A stretch of 64,000 bases of DNA from Escherichia virus TH40. Shown here piece after piece: positions 21,758-22,213 of this stretch (positions are counted from its first letter, which is position 1; each line of letters begins with the position of its first letter). The notes below the pieces were generated by a model. It made no database searches. It worked only from the letters and a program-made list of their open reading frames with translations, and was not told the origin of the DNA. The translations under genes were made by a program, and so were the position numbers. The stretch is from sequence record MT446411.1, one strand, 5' to 3'.

Positions 21758-22213
21758 CTACTTTAAATCCGCCGACCAATTTAATTTTAGCGGTTCTTTA
21801 TATTCACGGTCCAAAACAACCGGAATCTGGACTTCTCCTTTATACGTCAAAGGACCAACATTATAAGATAATGTTATGTGAGGAGTGTAGTCCGGGAAAT
21901 CATGTGTTGCGCCAATGGCTCGTGCATACATATGTCTGCAACTAAGATAATCTGAATCCAGTACAAGAACCAGGGTACTACCATCATCGGTTTTCCATAC
22001 TTCCAGGTGACCAGAGTTGGCTACTTCGAAACTGCCAGAGGCAACAACATATGGAATATTTACTCTGGAATAACAAATAGTGGAATGAAATTTTTCACGA
22101 GGAACGGGATTAGGTACCTTAAGAGAGCGCTGAAGATTTTCCAGCGCATCAAGAGTTAATTCTGAAAATTTGGCTGCAACATAAAGTCCTTCAGAGACTT
22201 CATTTAATGTCAT
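21758..22213 (-). CDS. 57B: 2H phosphoesterase family protein (T4 57B / Acb1-like)
   Basis: 151 aa with two H-x-T-x motifs (FHSTICY and PHITLSY); position between ipI locus and 57A as T4 57B. Confidence 0.7.

Follow-up and report, generated by a model that had tools for sequence, protein, structure and literature searches.

An intact ortholog of T4 57B/acb1, predicted to encode an anti-CBASS 2H phosphoesterase, in the Gaprivervirus-like T-even coliphage Escherichia virus TH40

We analysed a stretch of 64,000 nucleotides of Escherichia virus TH40 (sequence record MT446411.1; hereafter the window) around the gene acb1, also known as gene 57B, at 21758..22213 on the minus strand. ORF listing and re-translation give exactly one ATG-initiated reading frame here, of full length and without a premature stop, that encodes 151 amino acids followed by the stop codon; its identification draws on matches in Pfam and the PDB, on identity to T4, and on dN/dS. 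Two ORFs on the opposite strand (21751-21945 and 22007-22159) are mechanical only and have no support. On the minus strand the genes follow each other in the order gene 2 (DNA end protector), gene 3 (tail completion), gene 1 (dNMP kinase; 22449-23126), gene 57A (22213..22449), acb1, and four small genes of the internal-protein (ip) type. The 78-residue product of 57A, a tail-fibre chaperone, matches Pfam GP57 (87.6 bits) and PHROG 1002, and is 57% identical to T4 gp57A. With 57A directly upstream and the four ip-type genes directly downstream, acb1 lies where an earlier note on this DNA had put it, between the ip cassette and 57A as T4 57B does. The same note took the gene to be a homolog of T4 57B, and this is borne out both by the order 2-3-1-57A-57B-ip, common to T4 and the window, and by the alignment with T4 gp57B (NP_049750.1), which extends over all 151 residues without gaps at 83% identity and 91% similarity. 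Synteny was compared with T4, RB16, AB-Navy97, AS-gz, D485, and PM2; the block 2-3-1-57A-57B is kept in five further genera of Straboviridae, namely in RB16 (Pseudotevenvirus), in Lazarusvirus, in Tulanevirus, in a large Vibrio phage, and in Bragavirus.

The TAA stop of 57A and the ATG of acb1 overlap by 1 nt (TAATG), as compared to 4 nt between 57A and 57B in T4, and no clear Shine-Dalgarno sequence was seen ahead of acb1 at this junction. Together these features suggest translational coupling, and acb1 probably is both cotranscribed with 57A and coupled to it in translation. A match to the T4 late-promoter consensus, TATAAATA, is found at 22660..22667 (minus strand) within gene 1 and precedes the start of 57A by 211 nt; T4 also carries the consensus inside gene 1 and on the same strand. 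By this consensus match the site is a candidate late promoter from which 57A and acb1 may at least partly be transcribed; across the window the pattern occurs 21 times, against an expectation of 5.3. Late transcription from this site would fit the timing in T4, where Acb1 activity sets in about 15 min after infection begins (PMC9117128). Scans of 20300-25200 for sigma-70-type promoters (17 sites against 14.7 in shuffled sequence) and for intrinsic terminators (4 against 3.3) revealed no excess of either, and no early promoter or terminator near acb1 could be assigned from them. The 60-nt spacer between the acb1 stop and the first ip gene (21698-21757, minus strand) contains the hairpin GTGTAGG(N14)CCTACAC, which is kept in the related phage EAWsc9 and absent in T4, and which is not more stable than its shuffles (z = -1.65).

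The four ip-type genes, all on the minus strand, encode proteins of 110 (21365-21697), 90 (21084-21356), 80 (20833-21075), and 77 amino acids (20544-20777). Their products begin with MNIKTYNEFLAE, MKTFNELFNE, MKTYQTFINE, and MKTYQEFINE, a shared start of the type MKT(Y/F)(Q/N)EF..E that resembles the capsid-targeting peptide of the T4 internal proteins. Three of the four match PHROGs named internal head or virion protein, none has a match in Pfam, and relatives annotate ip5 and ip9 at the position of the cassette. Their likeness to T4 IPI is confined to the first 7 to 29 residues, the mature parts being unrelated to IPI and to each other. Judged by these alignments the four genes are members of a polymorphic internal-protein locus and not orthologs of the GmrSD inhibitor IPI; whereas ipI follows 57B in T4, four unrelated ip-type genes take its place in the window. 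The cassette had earlier been described as 'ipI-like', a description that holds for the N-terminal targeting peptide but fails for the mature part, as no IPI ortholog is present. The view that acb1 lies in a counter-defence neighbourhood, likewise put forward in the earlier note, is the one that Hobbs et al. (PMC9117128) argued for T4 from the adjacent ipI; for the window's own ip genes an anti-defence role is putative. In EAWsc9 two ip genes are separated by a small annotated homing-endonuclease gene (locus 4143-4442), and the corresponding 4-kb stretch of UPEC07 and VR25 also lists a homing or mobile endonuclease. The equivalent two ip genes of the window are 8 nt apart (at about 21075-21084), so the endonuclease insertion is absent here. 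Two further genes whose products start with MKTYQEFITE are situated at 8188-8487 and 8501-8815 (both minus strand); they adjoin a denV homolog (8864-9280), where T4 has ipII/ipIII, and bring the capsid-targeted candidates in the window to six in total.

The acb1 protein matches the Pfam family PF23474 ('Anti-CBASS protein Acb1') with 200.6 bits (E = 1.2e-59; gathering cut-off 27 bits) over profile positions 1-143 of 144. It also matches the crystal structures of Acb1 from Erwinia phage FBB1 (PDB 7T26/7T27; E = 7e-63) with 70% identity over residues 9-147. A single-sequence AlphaFold2 model of the protein was uninformative (mean pLDDT 37, pTM 0.30). The fold is therefore judged by sequence homology to 7T26, and this level of identity to a crystal structure settles it as a compact 2H phosphoesterase fold. 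That T4 57B is Acb1, as the earlier note had stated, is correct: T4 gp57B was identified as Acb1 by Hobbs et al. 2022 (PMC9117128). From these matches we hold with high confidence that the gene is an intact ortholog of T4 57B/acb1 in a Gaprivervirus-like T-even coliphage, and that it encodes a predicted anti-CBASS 2H phosphoesterase.

Many database records present the gene under a different name. The description of PHROG 755 reads 'RNA ligase', RefSeq gives the same name to T4 57B and many of its orthologs, and the 2H superfamily does include LigT, whose branch likewise carries two H-x-T/S motifs on the 2H fold. The protein might on these grounds be taken for a LigT-type 2'-5' RNA ligase or an RNA-repair enzyme that acts on RNA ends and not on immune signals. 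We judge this extremely unlikely, since the LigT model PF13563 (2_5_RNA_ligase2) scores a mere 11.9 bits (cut-off 27; E = 0.24) and aligns to just residues 91-121, as against the near-complete Acb1 match, and no NCBIfam model matches the protein. Moreover, the T4 ortholog was isolated as an enzyme degrading 3'3'-cGAMP, and cyclic-nucleotide cleavage is the only activity shown for T4 Acb1. On its profile scores the acb1 protein therefore falls outside the LigT family PF13563, and the name 'RNA ligase' looks like a fold-level annotation inherited from before 2022. We recommend the name acb1 (anti-CBASS protein 1) for the gene, in place of the 'RNA ligase' or 'hypothetical protein' of many related records.

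Both H-x-T motifs announced in the earlier note, HSTI and HITL, are evident in the sequence itself, at residues 43-46 and 112-115. The first catalytic motif, H43-S44-T45, is encoded by CAT TCC ACT at 22079..22087, and the second, H112-I113-T114, by CAC ATA ACA at 21872..21880 (both minus strand). Taken alone the two motifs are weak evidence, because at least two H-x-T occur in 2.8% of 20,000 shuffles of the protein; the reality of acb1 rests on homology over the full length, with purifying selection (see below) in support. Hobbs et al. (PMC9117128) place the catalytic tetrad of T4/FBB1 Acb1 at H44/T46/H113/T115, the aromatic residues on which the nucleobases stack at Y12, W74, F107, and W147, and the residue that reads the adenine N6 at E141, while residues 145-152 of FBB1 Acb1 form a C-terminal lid that closes over the ligand. 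All nine of these named residues are kept in the window protein with an offset of one: H43, T45, H112, T114, Y11, W73, F106, W146, and E140. The tetrad thus maps to H43/T45/H112/T114, in agreement with the 2H phosphoesterase assignment first proposed. The lid, LNWSADLK at residues 144-151 and including the stacking W146 (21761..21784, minus strand), aligns without gaps to LDWADDLK of T4. Overall T4 Acb1 (152 residues against 151 here) has the tetrad, the stacking aromatics, the adenine-reading glutamate, and the C-terminal lid in common with the window protein. Compared to the latter, FBB1 Acb1 is longer by one residue inserted after position 79 and shows two conservative aromatic changes, Phe at the position of W73 (Trp in both the window protein and T4) and Tyr at that of F106; all its catalytic and ligand-contacting positions align.

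We extended the comparison to an alignment of eight sequences: the window protein, T4, FBB1, Proteus PM2, Acinetobacter AB-Navy97, Aeromonas AS-gz, Vibrio D485, and RB16. The four tetrad residues and Y11 are invariant in all of them, and the positions of W73 and F106 are aromatic throughout. The position of W146 is occupied by Trp except in RB16 (Lys) and in the shorter AS-gz, and that of E140 by Glu except for Gln in AB-Navy97. Neither His-x-Thr motif is lost in this alignment, which spans six phage genera.

By homology to T4 and FBB1 Acb1 the protein would be a small, metal-independent 2H phosphoesterase whose ligands are cyclic di- and trinucleotides with at least one adenosine (3'3'-cGAMP, cUA, cAAA, cAAG). 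A U-shaped pocket would hold the ligand with its bases stacked on Y11, W73, F106, and W146; E140 would read the adenine N6, and the lid (144-151) would close over the whole. The tetrad H43/T45/H112/T114 would then catalyse attack of the 2'-OH on the 3'-5' bond located 3' of the adenosine, passing through a cyclic-phosphate intermediate to a linear product such as GpAp. By analogy with the known limits of Acb1, cGG, 3'2'-cGAMP, and cA4 are expected to escape cleavage. With the second messenger removed, the CBASS effectors (nucleases, phospholipases, and others) would stay inactive, and the infected cell would therefore not abort the infection.

The reference system lends this scheme its biochemistry. 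T4 Acb1 was found by activity-guided fractionation as a degrader of 3'3'-cGAMP, lysates of the delta-acb1 phage lose this activity, the H44A/H113A mutant is catalytically dead, and nine tested Acb1 homologs besides T4 all cleaved 3'3'-cGAMP and cAAA (PMC9117128). T4 Acb1 without residues 145-152 was inactive in a Panoptes activator assay (2H PDE preprint). In the phage, deletion of acb1 from T4 causes a more than 300-fold defect on CBASS hosts (Hobbs et al., PMC9117128), and the requirement for T4 acb1 against CBASS was confirmed independently by transposon sequencing (HIDEN-SEQ). The activity also has a cost: Acb1 degrades 2'3'-c-di-AMP and cA3 as well, which can trigger Panoptes guard systems, and T-even phages escape Panoptes through disruption of acb1 (Bas43; Bas35 escapers).

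The protein is separated from T4 Acb1 by 25 substitutions. Six are within the N-terminal residues 2-8, a disordered stretch outside the crystallised core. Others flank functional residues, namely F42, P107, N145, and S147/A148, corresponding in T4 numbering to I43F before the first catalytic histidine, D108P after F107, and D146N/A148S/D149A in the lid. Such flanking substitutions could in principle shift rate or substrate preference, and the protein might then be an Acb1 ortholog with a preference altered relative to T4 Acb1, for instance weaker on 2'3'-c-di-AMP or cA3 and so avoiding Panoptes, which selects against promiscuous Acb1. A precedent for divergent selectivity is PDE-9 (PDB 9Q2G/9Q2Y, deposited as 'Anti-CBASS protein Acb1'), a 2H-fold enzyme that groups structurally with T4 Acb1. 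According to the 2H PDE preprint it cleaves 3'3'-cGAMP, has its lid at the N-terminus and not the C-terminus, and differs sharply in the cleavage of 2'3'-c-di-AMP, which is poor, the enzyme core governing selectivity. Its sequence similarity to the window protein is marginal, however (E = 7e-4), and by sequence the latter belongs with T4 Acb1 and not with the PDE-9 clade.

On balance we consider an altered preference very unlikely. The known ligand-contacting residues are all unchanged and the sequence gives no sign of an altered pocket; P107 and S147 are also the residues present in the crystallised FBB1 Acb1; and 83% identity lies well within the range over which the nine tested homologs all cleaved 3'3'-cGAMP and cAAA. 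There is accordingly only a very small chance that F42, P107, N145, S147, and A148 retune the enzyme in such a way that the Panoptes decoys (2'3'-c-di-AMP or cA3) are spared while CBASS signals are still destroyed, which, if true, would make this a natural 'Panoptes-proof' allele of Acb1. The preferred reading remains an Acb1 ortholog with the predicted substrate range of the T4 enzyme.

Loss-of-function alleles of acb1, both natural and selected, do occur in Tevenvirinae (Bas43 and the Bas35 escapers above), and the window could in the same manner hold an inactivated copy that allows escape from Panoptes. The probability of this is close to negligible, as the frame is intact and of full length and none of the catalytic and ligand-binding residues is missing. 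The pattern of substitution argues against it as well. The acb1 genes of the window and EAWsc9 differ by 16 synonymous changes and no non-synonymous one, the proteins being identical, which shows ongoing purifying selection. At greater distance, the comparison with T4 (Nei-Gojobori) gives dN = 0.135 and dS = 1.64 (omega = 0.08).

A tblastn search found a homolog in 1,478 phage records, 30 of them at 99% identity or above. The protein of the Shigella phage fPSFA is 100% identical, as is that of EAWsc9 (XLZ23998.1, annotated 'anti-CBASS protein Acb1'), and those of VR26 and VR25 are identical or near-identical; the exact protein is thus already public, and acb1 of the window is an ordinary gene that was known and described before. 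A tblastn match in Pseudomonas phage psageK9 (29% identity) was set aside as unrelated or uninformative, being located within a 600-residue protein beside the terminase. Identity over the 4 kb surrounding the gene is 97.5% to Escherichia phage vB_EcoM_VR26 and about 96% to EAWsc9, UPEC07, and other Gaprivervirus phages (Straboviridae, Tevenvirinae), while the first 25 kb of the window show 91 to 93% identity to the best phage records.

A second anti-CBASS gene is predicted about 15 kb away. The 87-residue product encoded at 6711-6974 (minus strand) matches the PDB entry 7UQ2 ('Vs.4') with E = 5e-31 and the Pfam family PF24729 (Acb2_Tad1_hairpin) with 65 bits, and by these matches is an ortholog of T4 Vs.4, the cyclic-nucleotide sponge Acb2. 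Like T4, the phage thus carries two anti-CBASS proteins, the degrading Acb1 and the sequestering Acb2. Together they predict resistance to CBASS systems that use adenosine-containing 3'-5' cyclic di- and trinucleotides, and exposure to Panoptes-type guards that sense the depletion of cyclic nucleotides. Such predictions may be of use for host range and for the choice of therapeutic phages; beyond correct annotation the finding has little import and raises no new question. In EAWsc9 the equivalent of Acb2 is called merely a hypothetical protein.

Elsewhere in the window two tRNA genes were found on the minus strand, Arg-tct and a tRNA with anticodon CAT (19085-19160 and 19294-19367), the latter annotated as Ile2 in EAWsc9; an Rfam search of the window yielded nothing besides these two. 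The corresponding locus of T4 differs in carrying eight tRNAs, two small stable RNAs, and segB. Public annotation of the early-gene region that matches positions 1 to about 20000 of the window is unreliable: in EAWsc9, the nearest annotated relative (123500-145200), it includes many clearly spurious transferred product names such as oleosin, ovule protein, malate synthase, VirB3, and ubiquitinyl hydrolase 1.
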